Of a stretch of 64,000 nucleotides of DNA, positions 32,417-61,134 are shown one piece after another (the first letter of the stretch is position 1; the number at the start of each line of letters is the position of its first letter). This stretch comes from Candidatus Borrarchaeum weybense (GTDB lineage Archaea; Asgardarchaeota; Sifarchaeia; Borrarchaeales; Borrarchaeaceae). Under the pieces are notes generated by a model. It did not search any database, was not told the origin of the DNA, and was given only the letters and a program-made list of their open reading frames with translations. The DNA lies in contig JAHQJS010000007.1 in the NCBI GenBank assembly GCA_019057385.1, positions 811,685 to 875,684 of the forward strand, written 5' to 3'. The position numbers were made by a program, and so were the translations under genes.

Positions 32417-33628
32417 TCATTTTGTCAAATCAAAAAGAAGGGGCATTATTCTTTCCCCGCGAATTCTTGATAGACCTCCTTTTGAAGCTGCTTTCTCGTT
32501 AAATGCTTTTACTTTGTCCTTTTTTATTTTAGTTCCATAAATTGAGATTGGTGTCGGATCGGCTGTATGATCCTTATAATCTACAGGGGTAGCGTGATCT
32601 GACACGAGAATGATATAAAGTTCTTCCCAGGCAATTTGATCAAGAAGCAATCCCACCATACAATCTATTTTTTCAATTATTTCCACCTTCCCTTCGAAAT
32701 CTCCATCGTGACCTGCTTCATCGGGTCCCTCTATATGAAGCAAAACCAAATCGTGATCTTCTAGAAGATTTAAAGCAGCACTAGCCTTGGCATAAACATT
32801 TGTATCTATGTATCCAGTAGCTTCTGGCACATCAACAACTGTCATGTTGATAAATTTGCAAAGGCCTTTAATTAAACTAACTGCGCCTACACACGCTCCT
32901 TTCAAGTTCCAGTTATTAGGAGGGGCTCTTAAATCTGAAACATATCCTCCCTTCCAGGGAATCACCACATTTGCGGGAAATTTATTTTGTGTTTTACGAG
33001 TTACATTTATTGAGTGATCACGAAGTAGTTCATACGATGTTTCTATGAACTCATTTAAGATCTTTGTAGTCCTTATGGCACTCTTTGAATCCTTTACAGG
33101 TTTAATTATAGCTTTTTCACCCTCTTGCATGATCTTTGGGCAAATAACTTCTGAGGAACAGTTTTTGCCTCTTAAAATTAAAGAACCTCTAAAGTCTAGA
33201 CTTTCTTGAAATAATAATTCAACACCATCAATTTCATTCAATTCTCTTTTGATCAAATCTGCTAGTACTCTAACTCTTTCTCTAATTCTTCCTGCACGTG
33301 CATCAATAATATCATACTCTTTGTTTATCGTTGCAAAATTGCATCTAAATACGATATCACCAATCATGGGGATCAGACCTGCACCTAAAGCTTCAAAAAA
33401 ACCTCTTCCATTTTTAATTTTGGTATAGTCATATCCGAGCATAGAAAGATGTGCTTCTGCGCTCCCTGGGGCTATTCCAGGCGCTATTGCATTTAAAAGA
33501 CCGTTGATTCCTTCCGCTGCTATGTAATCCATATTTGGAGTATTCGCCCATTCTAACGGAGTAAAACTTCGTATTTCCGATGTTCTATCCGCCATTCCAT
33601 CTCCAACAATAAAAAGAAATTTCTTCAT
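32417..33628 (-). CDS. apgM: Cofactor-independent phosphoglycerate mutase (archaeal ApgM family)
   Basis: VGDGMAD, TPLE.A.TPNMD, PGS..AHL, DEAGH, SDHATP; ATG at 33628 preferred. Confidence 0.8.
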   Translation of the reverse strand: MKKFLFIVGDGMADRTSEIRSFTPLEWANTPNMDYIAAEGINGLLNAIAPGIAPGSAEAHLSMLGYDYTKIKNGRGFFEALGAGLIPMIGDIVFRCNFATINKEYDIIDARAGRIRERVRVLADLIKRELNEIDGVELLFQESLDFRGSLILRGKNCSSEVICPKIMQEGEKAIIKPVKDSKSAIRTTKILNEFIETSYELLRDHSINVTRKTQNKFPANVVIPWKGGYVSDLRAPPNNWNLKGACVGAVSLIKGLCKFINMTVVDVPEATGYIDTNVYAKASAALNLLEDHDLVLLHIEGPDEAGHDGDFEGKVEIIEKIDCMVGLLLDQIAWEELYIILVSDHATPVDYKDHTADPTPISIYGTKIKKDKVKAFNEKAASKGGLSRIRGERIMPLLFDLTK

Positions 33629-33739
33629 GTCTATGCGCTTCCAAAATCCCTTAAATCTTTTCTGTAAAGCCTTAGAGCTTATACTGTATCCAATCATTAA
33701 AGGAGGCTATTTCCATTTGTCAATGACGTTGGATTCTGC

Positions 33740-33785
33740 TCTGGATCTAAATACAGGGAGAGATAGAATGAATATTAGAGACCTA
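33740..33785 (-). ncRNA. Candidate sRNA/leader RNA copy C (UCUAUCUCUCC...GAUCC family); 3' extent uncertain
   Basis: TTTATATA box at 33815-33808, AGGT 24 nt downstream, shared core at 33743-33768; weaker stem than copies A and B. Confidence 0.4.
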
Positions 33786-33963
33786 GGTTAATATATCCTA
33801 CTTCAAATATATAAATATGATATATTCTCTGTAATCGCATAAAAAGAACGACATGCCAGAAACTTGCCATAACGTTTACAATGTCGATTCTGAAACCCTA
33901 TGCGATTAAATACGACGTCAAGATTTGAAATGCTACTGTTCGATTGATTAAGAGGTACGATGA

Positions 33964-42474: not shown

Positions 42475-43077
42475 TCATATTGCCTCTTTCACTTTAAGTC
42501 CGATCCTATATCCAATTATACCTGCAACAAATCCAAAAATTACACCAACAATTACATTCAAAACAATAAACACGCCGTAGGGTACACCAAAGAAGAATTC
42601 TACAAATGCGACATACTCAGGATACGTAATTGTTAGCAAACCCAGCTGGAACGGATAGAACACAATTGCTCTTAAGCATGCTCCGATGCCTGCTTTTAGA
42701 GAATTATTAGGATATCCACCAGTGATATAGAAGAAAGCCTCTATTAATGCTCCAGGTAAAATATCAGATGCTAGACCGATTACTGAAAAAATATTTGGAA
42801 ATAAAACTACTTCAAGAAGCCCATGGAGAAAGAAGATAAGAAAAACTGTTCCTCCCTTTCTTATTATTGTAGCTGCGAGCAGTACAAGAGTCATCGCTAA
42901 GAGTTCATAAACTATAACGGATACTACCCAGCTAAGCGGGGCCGGTATAGCAGCGAGCCCAATAAACCAAATTTGTTGCACACCATACCAGACGCCAACA
43001 AAAATTGCAATAACAACTAAATCAAATGTAGCAAACCGTTTGAAAAACCCTTTTTCTTGCTCAGTTTCCATTGTCAC
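42475..43077 (-). CDS. ECF transporter substrate-binding (S) component, probably corrinoid/precursor specific
   Basis: Hydrophobic ~200 aa, RKGG motif, downstream of ecfA/ecfT. Confidence 0.65.
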   Translation of the reverse strand: MTMETEQEKGFFKRFATFDLVVIAIFVGVWYGVQQIWFIGLAAIPAPLSWVVSVIVYELLAMTLVLLAATIIRKGGTVFLIFFLHGLLEVVLFPNIFSVIGLASDILPGALIEAFFYITGGYPNNSLKAGIGACLRAIVFYPFQLGLLTITYPEYVAFVEFFFGVPYGVFIVLNVIVGVIFGFVAGIIGYRIGLKVKEAI

Positions 43078-43942: not shown

Positions 43943-45454
43943 TCAGTTTTCCATTATTGGTAGTTGCACATTTTCTGTCGGAAATTGCCTAGAATTATTT
44001 TGTGCCATGTTTTGGTTAATGTGAGTTTCCATTATTTTCCCATTTTCTAATAAAAGTACTCTATTTGATATTGCACTGAGAAATTCCAAATCATGTGAGA
44101 TTGTAATTAATGTGTGTGTTTCATTCAATTCTTGAGCCAATTTGATGAAATCTTGCTTATGCTTATAGTCTTGTCCAGTTGTAGGCTCATCGAAAATCAA
44201 AATATTCGGTTGTGATACTAATAACGAAGCAATTGCAACCCTTTCTCTTTCCCCATAACTTATTTTAAAAGTACCTTTGTTATCGTAACCCTTAAGATTC
44301 AATAAATCGAGGGTTTCGTTTAAAAGCTTGTTTTTCTCATCCTCACTCAATCTTTGAATCCAAGGCGCGTATAAAATTTCATTTGAAACCTTGGTCGTCA
44401 GAATATTATCGTCTGGGTTTTGAAAGAGCACACCGATTTTCCTTATTGCTTGTTTACGTTTATAACTCCCGATCAGCTTTCCATCAATCATTATAGAGCC
44501 TTGTTTTGGCTTAAGAACGCCTGCTAAGATAAGTGCAAGAGTCGTTTTTCCAGAACCATTCTCACCCATTATTCCCAGGGATTCTCTTTCAAAGATTGAA
44601 AAAGAAATGTCAGTTAAAACGGAGTAATTATTATAGGAGAATGAAAGATTTTCTACTTGCAAGATTTTAGATCCATTAGTAATATTGGATTGTAGTGAGG
44701 GGTATATGGTCGTATTCAAAGGCTGTATTCCATAAGTGTTACAAAATTTTGTGTCTGTTAATATTTGAGGATCATCTGCAACTATTTCTCCACGATTTAG
44801 AACGATAACCCGATCGGTAATTTTACTAACTTCTTTTGTCCTATGCTCTGCAATTATAACAGTGATATTTTGATTTTCGCTGATTTGATCGATTAATGCT
44901 AGTATTTTTCTACCTGTTTTAAGGTCAATATTTGAAGTGGGCTCATCAAAAACCATTATAGCTGGACGAAAAGCAAGCATAGACGCAATACAGACTCTCT
45001 GTTGCTGTCCCATTGATAGTTCTGTCAATGGTTTTTCGGCAAATTTCTCCATTTCTACTGCTTCAAGTGCAAAATAAACCCTTTCTTGTATTTCCTCAGG
45101 AGGCAATCCTAAATTCTGTGGACCAAACGCTACTTCATCTTTAACCTTTAGAGAAAATAGTTGGGCCGATGGATTTTGGAGCACAACACCAACTTTATTT
45201 TTTAAGTGATAGGGAGGTGTTCTTTGGAGATTTTCACGTCCAACAGTTATATTGCCTTTAATTTTTCCTTCGGAATAAGAGTGCGGTATTAATCCGCTTA
45301 TACATAATACTAATGTTGACTTGCCGCATCCGCTGGGTCCAACAATTAGTAAACGCTCACCTTTATTGACTTTCAGATTGAAATCCTTCAAGGCAGGTTT
45401 CTCTGTGTTCGAATAACAATAAGAAAAATTCTCAACATGAATAAGCGGATTCAT
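43943..45454 (-). CDS. ECF transporter duplicated ATPase
   Basis: Two Walker A (GPSGCGKS, GENGSGKT), QNP, DEPT. Confidence 0.9.
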   Translation of the reverse strand: MNPLIHVENFSYCYSNTEKPALKDFNLKVNKGERLLIVGPSGCGKSTLVLCISGLIPHSYSEGKIKGNITVGRENLQRTPPYHLKNKVGVVLQNPSAQLFSLKVKDEVAFGPQNLGLPPEEIQERVYFALEAVEMEKFAEKPLTELSMGQQQRVCIASMLAFRPAIMVFDEPTSNIDLKTGRKILALIDQISENQNITVIIAEHRTKEVSKITDRVIVLNRGEIVADDPQILTDTKFCNTYGIQPLNTTIYPSLQSNITNGSKILQVENLSFSYNNYSVLTDISFSIFERESLGIMGENGSGKTTLALILAGVLKPKQGSIMIDGKLIGSYKRKQAIRKIGVLFQNPDDNILTTKVSNEILYAPWIQRLSEDEKNKLLNETLDLLNLKGYDNKGTFKISYGERERVAIASLLVSQPNILIFDEPTTGQDYKHKQDFIKLAQELNETHTLITISHDLEFLSAISNRVLLLENGKIMETHINQNMAQNNSRQFPTENVQLPIMEN

Positions 45455-45530: not shown

Positions 45531-45621
45531 GGTACTTTACGTAAGTAAAGAGGTAGGCACTTTAAAGGATCAAAAGGAGAGATAGAATTTGTAAGCATGA
45601 AATTGTAAAAGATACCTACCT
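45531..45621 (-). ncRNA. Candidate sRNA/leader RNA copy A
   Basis: TATA at 45652-45645, 5' AGGUAGGUAUCUUU pairing with AAAGUGCCUACCU, loop with UUCUAUCUCUCCUUUUGAUCC, 3' hairpin CUUUAC/GUAAAG. Confidence 0.55.
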
Positions 45622-45659
45622 AGGGTAGGTTATCCTACCCTAGATATATATAGTTTTCG
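45614..45659 (-). promoter_or_regulatory. BRE/TATA promoter followed by overlapping inverted repeats (candidate operator)
   Basis: Minus strand CGAAAAC-TATATATA then CTAGGGTAGG-ATAA-CCTACCCTAG, overlapping ACCTACC-N3-GGTAGGT. Confidence 0.55.
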
Positions 45660-50824: not shown

Positions 50825-51006
50825 GACCTGTCTTTCATTGTTAAACATTTCTAGAATGCGTCTTCACGCAAATCGACTTTGTGAGGTATGTAAAATAGTT
50901 TAGAAAGCAAGATCAAGAAGGAAACTCAATGATCGAGAGGAATTTTTCAATAAGATTTTCTTTAATAAGATAAATACATACTCATATCGAATAGAAGGGA
51001 GATATA

Positions 51007-51981
51007 TTGTTAAAATTTGAAAAGCCACAAGAAATATTTAGAATTGGTAATGTTGAGATCGGAGGGCAACCTGGAGAATTGCCTACCGTATTAGTTGGAA
51101 GCATATTCTATTATAAAGATAGAATTGTTGAGAACCAACATCAAGGTATTTTTAAGAAGAAAGAAGCACTACGAATAATCAATAAGGTAGATACCATATC
51201 CATGAAGACAGGAAATCCCTACGTGATAGATATAGAAGCAATTAGTAATCGTTCAATTGAAAAATTCATAGACTTTGTTTCGGAAGTAACAGAGGCACCC
51301 TTTTTTATAAATAGCACTAATATCCCAGTCAGGCTACATGGTGCCAAGTACGTAAATGAAAAAGGTCTCCAAAATAGGACAATCTACGCTTCTATAAATT
51401 TCAAGGTAGAAAAAAGTGAAATTGAAGTGCTAGAACAATCAAAAATAGATGCTGTACTAGTTCAAGCATTTAACCCTCAAAACCCGTGGTCTAAAGGAAT
51501 GATGAAGATTATGAGAGAGGGACTCAATGGAGAAGGACTTGTAGATATGGTAATAAAGGCAGGAATAAAAAAACCCCTCCTCTTTGCAAACATCTACGAT
51601 GTACCGAGCATTGGTATCGGTGGAGAAACTGTCTACATGTTAAAAAATGAGTTTGGTTTGCCGAGTGGTACAGCTCCGGTGGGTGTAGTCGGTGTATGGG
51701 GGAAAACGAAAGAGGCCAAAGAACTATATGCGCAAATAACCAGTATTTGTGGCGCAAACGCCGCAGTTTTCTCAAAACTCATGGGATCAGATTATATACA
51801 TTACGGTTCTTTGAAAAGAGCCGCAAAAATTTTTCCATCAGTTGCCATGATTGATGCTATAATAGCTTATAATGCAAAGTTATACGGAGTTGAACCAAAG
51901 ATAATAACACCTGCCTTACAAGATTTTTTTGATACTCCTGACAAAACAGTACCTCCGAAATACTTGCACGCTGAAAATTAA
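51007..51981 (+). CDS. mtrH: MtrH-family methyltransferase, divergent paralog 3
   Basis: KFEKPQ, GGQPGELPTVLVGSIFY, FGLPSG. Confidence 0.8.
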   Translation: MLKFEKPQEIFRIGNVEIGGQPGELPTVLVGSIFYYKDRIVENQHQGIFKKKEALRIINKVDTISMKTGNPYVIDIEAISNRSIEKFIDFVSEVTEAPFFINSTNIPVRLHGAKYVNEKGLQNRTIYASINFKVEKSEIEVLEQSKIDAVLVQAFNPQNPWSKGMMKIMREGLNGEGLVDMVIKAGIKKPLLFANIYDVPSIGIGGETVYMLKNEFGLPSGTAPVGVVGVWGKTKEAKELYAQITSICGANAAVFSKLMGSDYIHYGSLKRAAKIFPSVAMIDAIIAYNAKLYGVEPKIITPALQDFFDTPDKTVPPKYLHAEN

Positions 51982-52173
51982 AATAAGAACATATAGGACG
52001 ATATCGAGGGAGAATGTCTATTCAATATGCACGACTTGATACGACATCTATGGTTCATCTTACGAATTGAAAGAGATGATGCGGGAAAGAATTAAGTATA
52101 GTTTATTGAGTAGACATTTTGGATGATGAAAAACCTCTTTTGAGATGAAAAATCTTTTATAATGACGTGTCTT

Positions 52174-53910
52174 TTAGAAGACTGTATATTTTTTCTCGTG
52201 ATCTTTATACTGTGGCAAATGGCTCGCAGACAAAAAGCCAGGCAATTGTCGCCCTATGGCATCGGGGGGGATCTCTTCTTTCTTTTCCTTTTTTAAATTG
52301 AGCATATCGTCAATCCTCAAAATCGATATAGCTGTCTCACACGCTCCTTTGAATATTGCTTTAGTAACTGCCAATGGCATAATGATACCAGCGTTCATCA
52401 TATTATCAATTTTCTTACCTAACGCATTATATCCATACCACATATTGGCAGACTGTTGATGTTCCGCAATGAGGAAAGGTAGAATATCTAATGAATTCAA
52501 CCCTGTATTTGTCACCAACGCTCTTGGAATGCAAAGCAGAGCATCTGCAAAGGCTTTTACAGCAAATTGTTCCTTACCGTGAAATTCTCGTGAAAACTCT
52601 GTCAGTCGTTTTTTCAATTCTACCTCAACAGCCCCGCCGCCAGCAACTATCTTATTACATTTGAAAAGATTTGCTGTAGCGTAAAGAACATCAAGCACTG
52701 TTTTTTCGACATCCTCCATTATTTCTTTCGAAATGCCACGTATTAATATACACACTGATTGCGGGGTTTTGCATCCCTCAATAACAACAATTTTATTATC
52801 ACCAACTTTTCTCTCCTCAACCAAATTGGCTGATCCTAAATCCTCTTCCTTTAAGTCGTCAAGATCTCTAACTATATTTGCATTACAAGCCTTGGCAACC
52901 CTTAGTATAAATTTTTGCTTTGCAGCCCATCGATATAGTGTTACAGCCATAATTCCAGCTCTGGCCAGAAAATATGCCGCCAAATCATCAATACGTTTTT
53001 CACAGAAAACAACGTTTGCACCTGCTGCCTTTATCTTATTTACCCAATCTTTTAAGATCTGTGCCTTCTTATCTATGAAAGGTTTGATTAATTCTGGATT
53101 ATTTATTTCAATCTTTCCCTGAACTGTAGGAGGGTGATGTTCAAGTTTTTCTATCTCTAAAGGATGAGTAAGAACTGCAATCTTCGGATTTTTGACGTGC
53201 TTCGGCATTTGTGGATGAATCAATTGTTCATCCATAACCATTCCGCGTACAAAAATTGAATCGTTAACGGTCTTACCAGGTTTTTTAACGATATGAACCA
53301 GATCAATATTAGCAATCCAGTTGTTGTCTCTTTTTTCCTTGATTCGTTCAATAACATCAAGAACGATATCTGTTAATACTAAACTAGCCTTTGCACCCAG
53401 TTTGGTAGACATGATGGTATAGACTACTTTTTTGAGAATCTTTCTATCAGCAGACTCTATTTCTACTGCAATCTCGTCCAGAATCCTAAGTGCTTTCTTT
53501 AATGCCTCCTTGTATCCATGAATAATAATTGAAGGATGTATCTTATCGTCTAATAGTCTCTCTGCGCGTTCTAGAAACTCGCTTGCTAATACAACGGACG
53601 AAATAGAGCCATCACCCGTTGTATCCTTTTGAGCGGTTGCCAAATGGATCAGAATCTTTGCTACAGGATGCCATATGCTCATTCTTTTAAGTATCGTTGC
53701 CCCATCACAAGAGATAATGAAGTATTTGAGACTATCTACAAGGAACTTCTTCGAACCGCTAGGACCAAGACTTTTCTGTAGAATAGCTCTAATTATCTTT
53801 GCGATCAAAATATTACTCTTTACTAACTCTGAGCCATTTAACTGACTTATACCTTCTCTAATCAGTGGAGAAGTCATTAGTGCAGCATCTATGTTTGACA
53901 TCTCTCTCAC
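52174..53910 (-). CDS. Divergent group II chaperonin (thermosome/CCT-like)
   Basis: LGP.G..K, DGATIL, HPVAK, GDG, IHP..II.GY, GGGAVE, ILRIDD. Confidence 0.88.
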   Translation of the reverse strand: MREMSNIDAALMTSPLIREGISQLNGSELVKSNILIAKIIRAILQKSLGPSGSKKFLVDSLKYFIISCDGATILKRMSIWHPVAKILIHLATAQKDTTGDGSISSVVLASEFLERAERLLDDKIHPSIIIHGYKEALKKALRILDEIAVEIESADRKILKKVVYTIMSTKLGAKASLVLTDIVLDVIERIKEKRDNNWIANIDLVHIVKKPGKTVNDSIFVRGMVMDEQLIHPQMPKHVKNPKIAVLTHPLEIEKLEHHPPTVQGKIEINNPELIKPFIDKKAQILKDWVNKIKAAGANVVFCEKRIDDLAAYFLARAGIMAVTLYRWAAKQKFILRVAKACNANIVRDLDDLKEEDLGSANLVEERKVGDNKIVVIEGCKTPQSVCILIRGISKEIMEDVEKTVLDVLYATANLFKCNKIVAGGGAVEVELKKRLTEFSREFHGKEQFAVKAFADALLCIPRALVTNTGLNSLDILPFLIAEHQQSANMWYGYNALGKKIDNMMNAGIIMPLAVTKAIFKGACETAISILRIDDMLNLKKEKKEEIPPDAIGRQLPGFLSASHLPQYKDHEKKYTVF

Positions 53911-54501
53911 CTATGCTATTCTTACTCGAAACTTAATGATTATCATACCGATCAATGAATCCAGTCCTTTTACTTATATTATTTCAGAAATCACTTTGCT
54001 AATGACTCCATATACCTTTTTGTGCAAAATCACATTTTTGAAAGATTTTAAGAATGTATTTAAGACGTCATTTTACATGTTTGTAAATAATTTACTTGGA
54101 ACTAAGCCATAGATTGCACTTTCCTTTGATTTGCAAATAAAGGACTAACTCACTTTGGCTTTAAGCAAATTTCAAAAAGATTCTATAAATTCACAATATA
54201 TAGAGATACAAGTCTGGGAATGAAACGAGGAGTTATTCTCGAAGAGCTGGAGAGGCAGCATATATATATACTTATGCGTTGGCAAACACCAGAGTTCAAA
54301 ACTGTTTTGATCCTCCCTTTTAATTTTGAGGATATGTACATTCATTGATAGGTTCATTTGAGCAAAGAGCAATCCGAGGTGGTAATTGTCTACTATCAAA
54401 TGTTATAAAGTTTTTTACTCGAACGAATACGCCAATAACTCAAGAGGAATTTTGTAGGGATCGTCTCTTTGCAAGGCTTAGTGTGATTGTACATGCATAT
54501 A

Positions 54502-54948
54502 CTACGATTTACTTTTTTTTCTTCTTTTTTTAAATGAAAGTAAACAATTCTGAAATTCATCAAAAGATTTTTTGGAAATAATGCCGATTAAATTACCATC
54601 GTCATCAACCACACAAAGCCTGTTTATCGTAGTCCTCTCGAATTGGGACGCAATATCAAAGACTCTATCATTTGAGAATACGGAATATATGGACGACACC
54701 ATCACATCTTTTGCTATAAATTCGCAAGGATTCTTGCCTTCCGAGATTAATTTGACAATTACTCCTTCGGTAATAATACCAACAGGCTTGTTCGAGTTTA
54801 TAACAAGAATGCTATCAACCTGATGGCTGATCATTAATTCAGCAACTTTTGTTAAGTTATCTTCCAGATCACATGTAACAATATCTATAACCATATCAAT
54901 CGCTAAGGGAGCGATCTTATTAATTTCTTCACTCATTTTCTTCACCAT
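54502..54948 (-). CDS. CBS domain pair protein
   Basis: VAELM, PVGIITE, AKDVM, VVDDDGNLIGIIS. Confidence 0.85.
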   Translation of the reverse strand: MVKKMSEEINKIAPLAIDMVIDIVTCDLEDNLTKVAELMISHQVDSILVINSNKPVGIITEGVIVKLISEGKNPCEFIAKDVMVSSIYSVFSNDRVFDIASQFERTTINRLCVVDDDGNLIGIISKKSFDEFQNCLLSFKKRRKKSKS

Positions 54949-55064
54949 GTTTTTAGGTTCTTCCTAATCAAATTAGATCCGATTATTTTTTGCTGTGAAT
55001 GCCGGAAAAAGAATTATCAATTCCTTTAAAAAATAAAAAAGGTTGAGGGGAATTGTCAAAGTCG

Positions 55065-56327
55065 CTAGAAGGGCTTTGCAATTCTTTTTATTTCTGCTGT
55101 GCTTTCCGTGGGTTGAAGCGCCTCTAAATCAATTGGAAATGTACCGTATTCTTTTACCTTTCTGATAAGGTATTTGAATCTTTGCATTGTACATGCAGGT
55201 GAAACCGTGTCCAGTTTGACAGGTACAGAGCCTCCTCCTGGTGCTGTATCTCTTATATGTCTTCTTACTCGTTCATCTAAGATCTCCAAGGCAGCATAAT
55301 TGATGGTTTCAGCATCGGTTCCGACAACCCAGAGTTTCTTGTTTTTCGCAGATATTTTTTTTGCAGCAGCTAAGTCAGCTATTCGTGTATCCATCCCATA
55401 CATGAACACAATGAATCCACTATTATCCATGTAATGTTGCCAAAAGTTTTTCCAGTCATCAACAGCTTCGTAAAATCTGAATACGCCCCAGTTGTTATAG
55501 GGTGTTCTCTTTATGACCTTCATAGCAGCTGGCATTGCGAATTCTTCCCAGTTCTTTGTACCGATCAGCGGAACGTCGCATGCGGCAGCCCACATGAAAG
55601 GAAATAGTGTTGGTGCATGGGGCTTTACAACTTCTTCGTATTGAAACTTACCATAGTCGGTCGCTAAATCCACGTATAAGTCTAAGACTTTCCACAAGAA
55701 TTCAGGATCTCTGCGTGCCCATTTAATAAGTCTTGTGAATCCCATAGTCTTAAATGCGATGTCCCAAGGGGTAGCTTGGAAGTAGAAGGGTGTAAGACGA
55801 CCGGGTAAGGTCTCAAATATTGTCTTCATTATACCAGCAAAAAATGGTCCTCTGCCCTCTGTACTTAAGTCGGGTACTCTTAATTTGTCAAAATCTGCCT
55901 TCTCTTTGATTATTTCTCCATCTGGTGCTACACAGGGGTACGACGTTGTTGGACGGAGGAGTTTGCACCCTAGTACTTCAGGCTCGATGTTGTATACATC
56001 AAAGTCAGCCTGTGGAAACTCATGTTCCAGCTTGTCTACAACCCAATATTGACTCGCCACGAGTTTTTTATAGCTATAGCAGCACTCAAGTAAAGGAATT
56101 TTTGAGTGGTGTGAGGCAAACGTTTCCATAAGCCCAGTAGGCCCAGGTATTCGCCATTTAGGTTCTTTATAGGTTGCAAGTCTTGCTATGGCTTCAGCAG
56201 GTGTCTCAGGATATTTATCAATTCTAGCCTTGATTTTTTCTGTGTGTTCTTGGATTCTCTTTTCCATTTCTGGCTCTGTCTTTTCCTCGTATACTTTCTC
56301 ACCAAATATAGTTTCTCCAAAACCCAT
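55065..56327 (-). CDS. Uroporphyrinogen decarboxylase-family methyltransferase (divergent MtaA/CmuA-like)
   Basis: YNIEPEVLGC, DPE, EEFAMP, APGGG, VKEYG; co-transcribed with corrinoid protein. Confidence 0.7.
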   Translation of the reverse strand: MGFGETIFGEKVYEEKTEPEMEKRIQEHTEKIKARIDKYPETPAEAIARLATYKEPKWRIPGPTGLMETFASHHSKIPLLECCYSYKKLVASQYWVVDKLEHEFPQADFDVYNIEPEVLGCKLLRPTTSYPCVAPDGEIIKEKADFDKLRVPDLSTEGRGPFFAGIMKTIFETLPGRLTPFYFQATPWDIAFKTMGFTRLIKWARRDPEFLWKVLDLYVDLATDYGKFQYEEVVKPHAPTLFPFMWAAACDVPLIGTKNWEEFAMPAAMKVIKRTPYNNWGVFRFYEAVDDWKNFWQHYMDNSGFIVFMYGMDTRIADLAAAKKISAKNKKLWVVGTDAETINYAALEILDERVRRHIRDTAPGGGSVPVKLDTVSPACTMQRFKYLIRKVKEYGTFPIDLEALQPTESTAEIKRIAKPF

Positions 56328-56343
56328 TTTTTATACACCTCTA

Positions 56344-56985
56344 TTAAACTGCTCCTATTAGTCTTTTACACTCGCGTACAGCATCAGCTGCATCTCTGCC
56401 GAATCCGTCCGCATTGTATTGAATTAACATATCACGATATGCGCCAGCACCACCGATTATATATTTTACTTTGTCCCTAACACCAGCCTCAGTAAGTGCC
56501 TTCTCAATTGCTGGAAGCTCTATATCAGCTGTTGATGTAGAATAGGCGGAAGCCCCAATTAACTCTGGGTTGTATTTCTTTATTGCCTCAACGAATTTTT
56601 CAGGATAGACATCTGAGCCCAAATCAATGACTTTAAATCCAGCACCTCTCAGAAATGCACCAACAAGGTTTTTTCCGATGTCATGAACATCTCCTCTAAC
56701 AACTCCAAGAACTATCGTCGCAATAAAATCTGCGTTACCACTTTTTTCCAATTCAGGAAGGACAATATTCAGGGATTTTTTCGCAGCTTCACCAACCATC
56801 ATTAGATCAGCAATGAAGTACTCTTTTTGCTCAAGTCTTTTCCCTGCAACTGTCAAGCCATTTTTCATCGCATCGATGACTTCCATTGGCTTTGCACCTT
56901 CATTAACCGCACGTTTTGTCAGCGCTTCTGCATCGTCATCTTCGCCCTCAAGAATAGCGTTTTCTAAGTCCTTTAAAGTAGACAT
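56344..56985 (-). CDS. Methyltransferase cognate corrinoid protein (MtaC/MttC-like)
   Basis: Cap domain (EYFIADL) + GDVHDIGKNLV B12 motif, GASA, IIGGA. Confidence 0.9.
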   Translation of the reverse strand: MSTLKDLENAILEGEDDDAEALTKRAVNEGAKPMEVIDAMKNGLTVAGKRLEQKEYFIADLMMVGEAAKKSLNIVLPELEKSGNADFIATIVLGVVRGDVHDIGKNLVGAFLRGAGFKVIDLGSDVYPEKFVEAIKKYNPELIGASAYSTSTADIELPAIEKALTEAGVRDKVKYIIGGAGAYRDMLIQYNADGFGRDAADAVRECKRLIGAV

Positions 56986-57632
56986 TTTTTCTATCTCTCC
57001 TAGTTTTGATCCATTTTACATATTTTTTGGATGAACCTCTATTTTCAAGAAGTCCATTTAAGTTATAGCGAATTATTATTATAGTTTTACTATAAAAAGT
57101 TTATTACTTAATAATAATTTTTTTGTATTTATGATATAATTTATTATAATTATGAATATGCTTTTTTCAAATAACAATTTAATACATCCAATCCTGGTGT
57201 TTCCTTTTTACGAAAAAATCGTACTATGAAGTCGGTATTCTACATCGGATCGATATTCATTCGGGCGAGCCCTTCAGGGTATTTTAATAAAGAATAATTT
57301 TCTTACAATTAGTTTATAAGCTCCGCGTAGTGTAAAAATATAAGAATGCCAATATTAACGGAAAGAAGTCACAGGTTACATTCTGCATGTGAAACTGGCA
57401 TAACAAGAAGGATCCTTTGTCAGTTGCATATTTTATTTGAGCTCCTGCAAATCAACCAATTTCACTCTTTAAAGGATTAATGGAATCGTGAATTCAAACA
57501 TTTTAAAAATGTACTTACCTTAATACTTATAAATATGGATTAGATTTTTATTATAATTAGTTTGTATTTCCCTAATATAATATTTGAAAACGAGATTATG
57601 TAGCGGAAACTATTATTCGCATTATCTATAGA

Positions 57633-58778
57633 GTGATTGCAATGGACGTATCGATACTCAAAATTAAGGAAGACCTTTTAGAAAAGGTAAAACTAGCAGT
57701 AATTGATGGCAACGATATTATAATCGGTAAATATATATTAAACGTATTGAATTCGAACATTCCAAATCCATTTGACTCTATTATGACCGTTCTTATTGAA
57801 GGCATTAAAAGAGTTGCAGATATGTACGAAACAGGAGAATGTGAGCTGCCAGATTTGATACTAGCGGGGGAATCACTCAAAGAAGCACTTAGTATTATAA
57901 CAAATAACGTGCGCGACCCCTCTAGTTTTTTACAAATAAAAAAAGGAAAAGTTATCCTAGGAACTGTAGAAGGTGACACTCATGATATCGGCAAAAATGT
58001 CGTTGCAGCCATGCTTCAAGCTAATGGTTTTGAAGTTATAGATCTCGGACAGAACGTACCACCTCAGATATTCGTCGAAAAGGCAGTAGAAGAAAAGGCG
58101 AATATTATAGGGGCCTCTTCATTTATGTCAAGCACTAGAAATTCTCAAAAAAAGATTTTAGAAGAATTAGAAAAGGTGGGACTTAGAGATAAAATTATTT
58201 TTCTCATCGGTGGGGCTGCGGTCTCAAAAGATTATGCCAAAACGATTGGTGCAGATGGATATGCGAAAGACGCTTTTGAGACAGTTGAACTGCTTGAGGG
58301 CTTGGTTAATAACCAAAAGAAAATTACACCAGAAAAAAATCACAAATTATTACTTAAAATGGAAGAAAACAGAAAAATGATTGAACAATTAGCTGATCAA
58401 GTCAAACAGTTTCAAGATATTATTGGGAAGACAACTAGTAGAGAAGTGAATGTTGATAAAAGTCGCCTTTTAATTTCGCAGAAGTTCATAAATGTCAAAA
58501 ATATAACGTTTTCAGAAGAAAAGGTTTACAAAATATTATCAAGTTTGTCCAACAAAGTTCGCTTAAGGGTTCTTATGGCTCTATGGCAAAAACCTTTACA
58601 TTTTTCCGAAATCGAAGAAGTCATATCAGTTAAAGGCGGTCATCTTCAATTTCACGTGGGAAAATTAAAAAACGAAGGATTAATTGAACAAAAGAAGAAC
58701 CGAGGAAAATACTCAGTTACTCAAAAAGGCAAAAAAGTAATAATGATAACAAGTCAATTATCATCGCTTGAGAATTAA
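57633..58778 (+). CDS. Corrinoid-binding protein fused to C-terminal ArsR-type winged HTH (putative regulator)
   Basis: GDTHDIGKNVV, IGGAAV, GADGYA then LSNKVRLRVL...FSEI...GGHLQFHVGKL..GLI...Y.VT.KG. Confidence 0.82.
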   Translation: MIAMDVSILKIKEDLLEKVKLAVIDGNDIIIGKYILNVLNSNIPNPFDSIMTVLIEGIKRVADMYETGECELPDLILAGESLKEALSIITNNVRDPSSFLQIKKGKVILGTVEGDTHDIGKNVVAAMLQANGFEVIDLGQNVPPQIFVEKAVEEKANIIGASSFMSSTRNSQKKILEELEKVGLRDKIIFLIGGAAVSKDYAKTIGADGYAKDAFETVELLEGLVNNQKKITPEKNHKLLLKMEENRKMIEQLADQVKQFQDIIGKTTSREVNVDKSRLLISQKFINVKNITFSEEKVYKILSSLSNKVRLRVLMALWQKPLHFSEIEEVISVKGGHLQFHVGKLKNEGLIEQKKNRGKYSVTQKGKKVIMITSQLSSLEN

Positions 58779-60315: not shown

Positions 60316-60639
60316 GAAAACGCCTCCTTAATTAAAGCAATTGTGAGTTTGTGGCGGAAGTTCTGTATCCCTGGAAGTAATATAAGAATATCGGGTCTAA
60401 ATAAAAGGAGTCCGTTTTCAATACCCGATAAAACTTTATAACAATGTCACATCCTTTTGCAAGAGACTTGAGGGACACCATACTCACTTTGTCGATAGTC
60501 TCTAGCGCATTATCCAATAGGCTTCTCAAATTAGTAAGATTTGCTTTCTTCTCTTCTAATTGCAACGAGAAGAATTTCTGAGAATTCATCCACAGACTCA
60601 AGCTCGTGGCTTTCTTGAGGTGTCTCATAAGAAAAAATA

Positions 60640-60734
60640 GGTACTTATTTTGAATAATGAAGGTAGGCACACCCAGGATCATGTAAAGGAGAGATAGACT
60701 TTATCAAAATCCATTGGAGGGATATGCCTACCTT
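60640..60734 (-). ncRNA. Candidate sRNA/leader RNA copy B
   Basis: TTTTATAC box 60763-60756; 15-bp stem AAGGUAGGCAUAUCC/GGGUGUGCCUACCUU with G-U pairs; loop contains UCUAUCUCUCCUUUACAUGAUCC. Confidence 0.55.
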
Positions 60735-61134
60735 AGGTGCGACCACTTCATTGCTGTATAAAAGTCTTATTGTACAACATTCAGCAATCAAATCCTTCTG
60801 AAATAAGTTACAATTTAGTATGTTTTCTGCGTCGAAGTCGAAGCGAGGGGCATCGATAATAAATTTGAAGATTATAAAAGAGAGATATAGAACAAAATGG
60901 GTGATACTAGAGGATAAAAAAGACAATAAAAATCAACATATTGCAAAAACTTACGTTTTAAGATTTCGTTCATATTCATTCGATTTGTAGTTTACTCAGG
61001 AAAATTTTATATCCATAAACCTTAATATTACATCTCTACAAATTTTTTATTAATGTACTAGAAGTTTTATATAAGTCTGAAAAACTTGTGATATTTGAAG
61101 AGCACAATTATTAGAAATATTATCTCACAAGAAG

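Follow-up and report, generated by a model that had tools for sequence, protein, structure and literature searches.

Introduction

Masking of the ribosome-binding site (RBS) by small RNAs is established in archaea, as in the case of sRNA162, sRNA154 and sRNA41 of Methanosarcina mazei (PMC3510493; review PMC5867862). The locus described here lies in a 64,000-nucleotide stretch of DNA from the archaeon Candidatus Borrarchaeum weybense (the window, to which all coordinates without a prefix refer), and it resembles these M. mazei sRNAs in having an exposed C/U-rich anti-RBS segment that is complementary to a Shine-Dalgarno region, in a target that belongs to C1/methyl metabolism, and in the predicted outcome, namely blocked translation initiation, which here is predicted from sequence alone. 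Unlike the M. mazei sRNAs, with which they share no sequence or structure homology, the elements of the window come in three paralogous copies that apparently sit in the 5' leaders of mRNAs and not in intergenic stand-alone genes. The host is also different, being an Asgard archaeon, and the theme is B12 instead of nitrogen.

The leaders of metabolic operons can themselves act in trans. The riboswitch/leader RNAs SreA and SreB of Listeria act in trans on the prfA mRNA, and the Rli55/EutX RNAs are trans-acting RNAs under the control of a B12 riboswitch. Our locus shares with both systems a metabolic-operon 5' leader as the proposed trans regulator, and with Rli55/EutX it also shares the B12 theme. 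Unlike them, our elements have no evident ligand-binding aptamer and match nothing in Rfam: no match was returned in the window at gathering thresholds, cobalamin riboswitch RF00174 and related families included, and none to the elements at E <= 5 in the region 33500-61000. To our knowledge, no cobalamin riboswitch is known in archaea. A third point of comparison is the CarH/LitR type of regulator, in which, as here, a protein with a B12-binding domain and a DNA-binding domain is encoded beside the regulated genes. The local regulator differs from CarH/LitR in carrying a C-terminal ArsR-like wHTH and not an N-terminal MerR domain, and the motif that we describe lacks the repeat symmetry and the promoter overlap expected of CarH/LitR operators. 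Our literature searches found no description of a regulatory RNA-target pair in Asgard archaea.

A two-block motif in a B12-gene island

We compared the source genome of the window (G000) with a sister genome (G004), a JGI contig (L052), a metagenome contig (L061) and an ENA contig (L066). When both strands of the 4.18 Mb source genome were searched for the two blocks with a spacer of N(2-14), the pattern was found in four copies, all of the form GGATC-N(4-9)-GGAGAGATAGA and all inside one 27 kb island of B12 genes. Three of them read on the plus strand, namely sites A (33743-33767, spacer 9), B (45567-45586, spacer 4) and C (60676-60698, spacer 7), and the fourth, site D (56990-57012, spacer 7), reads on the minus strand. 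Under a first-order Markov model, the 11-mer GGAGAGATAGA alone is expected 2.25 times per genome and the two-block pattern 0.010-0.023 times. Sites A, B and C are mutually homologous over about 120 nt, with nhmmer retrieving exactly these three copies in the genome, and D is therefore an independent occurrence. As such, with the pattern expected only 0.010-0.023 times, D is not a chance match.

An earlier sequence-only reading of this DNA had placed both shared blocks across the Shine-Dalgarno sequence of the leader of a corrinoid protein gene and close to its AUG. The match is indeed exact and stops 4 nt short of the AUG: on the minus strand, 56983-57012 reads GGATCAAAACTAGGAGAGATAGA-AAAA-ATG. 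In mRNA sense, site D is GGAUC-AAAACUA-GGAGAGAUAGA and includes the Shine-Dalgarno core GGAG. In the search for other leaders with the motif, the two-block pattern was found only at A-D; 11-mers with one mismatch do lie beside other start codons, where the N-terminal sequences of the genes do not look B12-related and the sites were set aside. One two-block match with one mismatch, at C6:54269, falls inside coding sequence and was likewise dismissed.

Outside the source genome, the motif, the ECF gene and the methyltransferase gene were not found in four of the five other genomes of the same class (69-80% complete), and a scan of genome contigs with the methyltransferase protein returned no match. 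Among 400 genomes of the phylum, 17 motif matches lay outside the genus; they sit in coding-like sequence, for instance the gyrB GGSAKQGRDR motif, and were attributed to chance. The leaders of the orthologues in L053 and L054, whose methyltransferase is about 70% identical, have a canonical Shine-Dalgarno sequence, GGAGGTGA, and lack the motif, so the motif is apparently restricted to a single genus-level clade.

Structure and strand of elements A, B and C

The motif copies A, B and C belong to larger elements that are best read on the minus strand. Element B (45551-45621, minus strand) is a stem-loop, AGGUAGGUAUCUUU...AAAGUGCCUACCU, whose loop contains UCUAUCUCUCC-UUUU-GAUCC and for which seven variants were recovered from other genomes and metagenomes. 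Its BRE/TATA, CGAAAACTATATATAT (45643-45659, minus strand), which reads CGAAAAC-TATATATA, is conserved in all seven variants and lies 23 nt before the stem-opening AGGU. Element C (60661-60733, minus strand) is a stem-loop of the same kind, AGGUAGGCAUAUCC...GGGUGUGCCUACCU, with UCUAUCUCUCC-UUUACAU-GAUCC in its loop, a predicted TATA box TTTTATAC (60756-60763, minus strand) and a 90% identical orthologue in the sister genome. Element A (33700-33785, minus strand) is degenerate and has no long stem, at most a weak remnant of one. It carries UCUAUCUCUCC-CUGUAUUUA-GAUCC and has a predicted TATA box, TTTATATA, at 33810-33817 on the minus strand. The archaeal-type BRE/TATA sequences are in minus-strand orientation and end 22-24 nt before the stem, and both B and C are flanked by AGGTAGG.../...CCTACCT.

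The stem of B and C has 16 pairs. Across six distinct sequences its pairing reaches 89.6%, clearly above slid controls, and B and C differ by compensatory changes at three of the pairs. Counted over nine sequences, G·U cells number 12 when the stem is read as minus-strand RNA and 5 when it is read as plus-strand RNA. The minus-strand elements fold more stably than shuffled sequences (z-scores of -5.7 and -4.4), and the exposed UCUAUCUCUCC...GAUCC sits in the 3' half of the large loop. The 11-mer is predicted to be unpaired with a probability of 0.73-0.99 in 7/7 folded RNAs; the GAUCC block is less exposed, with a predicted unpaired probability of 0.04-0.73. Conservation between B and C is limited to the stem and these single-stranded 16 nt. 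Promoter orientation and the strand asymmetry of the stem thus agree with the earlier proposal that the motif is in sense at D and antisense in the predicted transcripts of A, B and C. Transcription of the three elements from the plus strand was considered and rejected on the orientation of the BRE, the G·U bias and the lack of a plus-strand gene after B. A small ORF following the plus-strand motif was rejected as well, the reading frames not being conserved among A, B and C.

The same reading had spoken of three candidate RNAs, and on this point we differ in that the elements look more like mRNA leaders than like free-standing sRNAs. No run of U5 or longer follows the stem of A or B ahead of the start codon, and both elements continue into the genes downstream; in C, a U6 tract is present in the source genome and absent from the sister genome. 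Since A and B have no discrete U-tract 3' end and that of C is found in the source genome only, we read A, B and C as probable, possibly processed 5' leaders of operons for cobamide salvage, cobamide transport and corrinoid reactivation.

Gene context of the elements

Genes were assigned by Pfam annotation. Element A lies between a PhosphMutase/Metalloenzyme gene (32417-33697, minus strand), of which it is the predicted leader, and a cbiB-cbiZ-cobS-nucleotidyltransferase cluster on the plus strand. In the predicted leader of that plus-strand cluster, at 33832-33908, there is a nested stem-loop (AAUCGCAUA...UAUGCGAUU, with the inner stem GAACGACAU...AUGUCGAUUC). In L061 this region retains 92% identity, against only about 84% for the neighbouring proteins, and the stem-loop may be a second leader element.

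Element B is the predicted leader of an ECF transporter/cobamide salvage operon that starts at 45454 and encodes, in order, a fused ECF ATPase, CbiQ, a 200-aa protein, a CobD-type aminotransferase, CobT and further proteins. The 200-aa protein (42475-43077, minus strand) has no Pfam match and is 99.5-100% identical in the sister genome and L061; its position suggests that it is the substrate-binding (S) component for a cobamide or a precursor.

Element C is found upstream of a DUF1638 remnant and the gene of a MetH-activation-domain protein. The 116-aa ORF that follows element C (60332-60682, minus strand) is the C-terminal remnant of a DUF1638 protein that is intact at the same place in the sister genome (215 aa, L050:4910-5557). 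The annotated ATG of this ORF falls inside the motif and probably does not serve as a start codon. The interval between B and D contains a RACo activase gene and three genes of the MtrH family, and a gene for a B12-binding/wHTH regulator (57633-58778), with the ArsR-like wHTH at the C-terminus, is located between D and C.

Site D and the corrinoid-protein leader

The gene downstream of site D (56344-56985, minus strand) encodes a 213-aa corrinoid protein with Pfam B12-binding_2 and B12-binding domains. It heads an operon that also contains the genes of a URO-D-fold methyltransferase (55065-56327; Pfam URO-D) and a CBS protein (54502-54948; Pfam CBS). A BRE/TATA is predicted for this operon at 57090-57105 on the minus strand (AATAAACTTTTTATAG) and is conserved in the three-genome alignment of the leader. 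It would place the transcription start near 57069; the leader would then measure about 85 nt and the motif would span roughly +58 to +80. A leader hairpin, GGACUUCU-loop-AGAGGUUC (57033-57055, minus strand), lies between the BRE/TATA and the motif. It has G·U pairs in mRNA sense and the consensus GGRCUUCU...AGARGUYC, and is kept through changed bases in the sister genome and L052. Because this G·U-bearing hairpin is conserved, transcription would start upstream of the motif. A tract rich in A that lies 15-30 nt upstream of D might serve as the promoter instead, in which case the start would fall inside or after the motif.

The leader alignment comprises the source genome, the sister genome (methyltransferase 80% identical) and L052 (88% identical), and it has just two conserved islands: the BRE/TATA about 80 nt upstream, AATAAACT[T/A]TTTATA, and a 27-nt stretch around the motif, AATGGATCAAAAC[T/A]AGGAGAGATAGA. 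The sole substitution in the second island falls within a 3-nt stretch that is predicted to bulge from the duplex of B with D. Site D is conserved at 22/23 positions in the sister genome and likewise in L052, with diverged flanks, and even the N-terminal coding sequence diverges while the 27-nt island is kept. The 3' end of the 16S rRNA is GGAUCACCUCCU. The GGAG of site D lies 11 nt before the ATG, in the tail of a genome-wide GGAG-to-ATG distribution that peaks at 8-9 nt, and its spacing is plausible, not optimal.

The D-bearing segment is inverted between the source and sister genomes, and the motif stays in sense with its gene. The rearranged block comprises the MtrH, chaperonin, CBS, methyltransferase and corrinoid protein genes together with D (window positions ~51000-57012, corresponding to G004:C78:52136-59000) and has been repositioned as well as inverted. 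Protein identity between the two genomes is 93-99.7% in the cobamide salvage half of the island and 57-82% in the methyltransferase half.

With D adjoining an inversion breakpoint, and with B and C bounded by 10-bp inverted ends (AAGGTAGGCA/TGCCTACCTT), one could regard the four copies as relics of a small mobile or recombination-associated repeat that has no regulatory role. However, the family has only three members in the genome, and their positions are orthologous in all the genomes and contigs compared; there are no visible target-site duplications, D has no inverted ends, and no remnant of the motif lies near the other rearrangement boundary. Moreover, conservation is far higher in the blocks than around them. 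We consider repeat debris a highly improbable explanation.

Complementarity between the elements and site D

Besides the rarity and conservation of the motif, the stem with its strand bias and the accessibility of the loop, we observed direct complementarity of the three elements to site D, amounting to 11 + 5 bp in the case of A, 11 + 6 bp in that of C and 11 + 9 bp in that of B. When only the bare blocks are paired with D, the duplex energies are -25.3 kcal/mol for A, -28.0 for B and -27.1 for C; values from duplexfold on long RNAs are inflated by chained loops and are left out. All motif-bearing variants of B (6/6) keep UUUUGAUCC and all variants of D (3/3) keep GGAUCAAAA, so that 9 + 11 = 20 complementary nt are retained. 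When the loop regions were scanned against 13,120 candidate start regions, D ranked first as the partner of B, first for C and second for A, with a margin of about 3 kcal/mol over the next candidates, a ranking that is not independent of the initial motif observation.

These features are consistent with RNA-RNA masking of the corrinoid ribosome-binding site by the A, B and C leaders, which is our favoured reading and which we place at about even. The three leaders would expose UCUAUCUCUCC...GAUCC, in a loop that in B and C is closed by the long conserved stem, and, either within their mRNAs or after processing, they would pair with GGAUC...GGAGAGAUAGA in the leader of the corrinoid/methyltransferase mRNA. 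The predicted duplex would extend over the Shine-Dalgarno core as far as position -5, so binding of the 30S subunit should be blocked. When the cofactor is scarce, the genes for cobamide supply would be strongly transcribed and translation of the apo-corrinoid protein would be held back. The transcription starts, the meeting of the RNAs in trans, repression as the direction of the effect and the link to B12 status are the steps of this scheme that we infer.

The loops might instead act only in cis, either by folding as anti-Shine-Dalgarno sequences onto GGAGAU further downstream or by binding an RNA-binding protein, with D, a Shine-Dalgarno-like sequence, matching them only through common descent, for instance by inverted duplication. 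The lack of a U5 tract behind the stem in A and B, both of which continue into genes, would suit such a role, and so would the anti-Shine-Dalgarno-like CUCUCC/CUCC that the loops hold, sometimes twice. In the B mRNA, AAAGGGAGAU, 14 nt before the AUG, is complementary to the loop sequence AUCUCCUUUU over 8-10 bp; the L066 loop keeps CCUCC and CUCUCC and not the full 11-mer; and the motif resembles the 16S 3' end, GGAUCACCUCC. Nevertheless, likeness between Shine-Dalgarno and anti-Shine-Dalgarno sequences covers 5-6 nt and not the exact 11 + 5 to 11 + 9 nt found here, and a purely cis role leaves unexplained why a 27-nt island is conserved at D amid diverged flanks and diverged N-terminal coding sequence. 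We therefore regard action in cis alone as quite unlikely; a cis anti-Shine-Dalgarno role of the loops as an additional function is plausible.

The motif as a possible DNA operator

The location of the four sites also invites a reading at the level of DNA, in which the two-block motif would be the double-stranded site of a B12-responsive factor, such as the B12-binding/wHTH protein encoded at 57633-58778, controlling four promoters with its orientation immaterial. All four sites belong to B12-related transcription units, the regulator gene lies between D and C, the motif and the wHTH regulator co-occur in the source and sister genomes, and the same 16 nt are perfectly kept on either strand, as would be the case for a shared protein site. 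However, the motif has neither dyad nor direct-repeat symmetry, the spacer between its would-be half-sites is not fixed (4-14 nt), and its predicted positions, at about +18 to +77, do not overlap the BRE/TATA. The sister genome has no copy upstream of the regulator gene, and in A, B and C the motif always occupies the same place inside an RNA stem-loop with strand-biased G·U pairs. Furthermore, a far more operator-like palindrome, CTAGGNTAGG-N4-CCTANCCTAG, already lies between the TATA box of B and its predicted start. On balance, we think it unlikely that the motif is a DNA operator. Were it one, the four sites would define the regulon of an undescribed B12-binding wHTH regulator.

The palindrome upstream of B, CTAGGGTAGG-TTAT-CCTACCCTAG at 45620-45643, is kept in 7/7 B variants, of which only about half have a complementary pair at its variable centre. 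It resembles the operator of a dimeric protein and, as a candidate site for the wHTH regulator, would be preferable to the two-block motif.

Variation among relatives

Across all copies, those of relatives included, the spacer between the blocks varies between 4 and 14 nt. The two blocks themselves are invariant in the source genome, the sister genome, L052 and eight RNA copies, and no compensatory change between seed and target was seen. Perfect conservation of 16 nt in at least eight copies is more than pairing alone needs. In L061, 5 nt are inserted into the 11-mer of element A and GATCC is replaced by AATCT, although the flanks are 92% identical.

The ENA contig L066, whose ECF protein is 85% identical, retains the promoter and a 14-15-bp stem in which the bases differ. 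Its B loop has diverged to UCCAGCUCUCC...UAUUC. Since L066 keeps the scaffold with another loop, the scaffold is older than the present loop sequence. A D-like site, GGAGAGATAAA (one mismatch, in sense), lies in L066 2 nt before the ATG of a 57-aa ORF that heads a paralogous corrinoid operon (39% identity), and about 6 bp of complementarity are left between this site and the L066 loop. In its arrangement, the B scaffold of L066 faces the divergent paralogous corrinoid operon (L066:9325-9400 and L066:9830-9897). As it stands in this contig, the pattern does not fit simple one-to-one pairing. A 9-nt complement in L066, AUACCCUCC/GGAGGGUAU, was considered as covariation and was not counted, its order being non-colinear and its position overlapping a possible TATA box.

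The earlier interpretation, which took the variable spacer to suit RNA-RNA pairing better than a dimeric protein operator, is supported in part. The 4-14 nt spacer, the lack of a dyad, the exposed loops and the conserved island at D are on its side, and the mismatch in L066 and the invariance of the blocks count against it.

Implications

Going beyond the pairing itself, we tentatively propose, at somewhat below even confidence, that the leaders of the salvage, transport and reactivation operons have a second role: as three paralogous anti-RBS RNAs acting in trans, they would tie translation of the corrinoid methyl-carrier protein to cofactor supply. The seed sequence may have arisen through inverted duplication of the target's own leader. 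Both partners are short and defined, a stem-loop of about 75 nt and a leader of about 85 nt, which allows them to be studied without culturing the source organism. A conserved RNA-target pair within a cobamide-salvage/corrinoid-methyltransferase island offers a testable hypothesis for how B12-dependent enzymes are matched to the supply of their cofactor. If true, it would constitute a post-transcriptional B12 circuit and the first regulatory RNA-target pair described in Asgard archaea.
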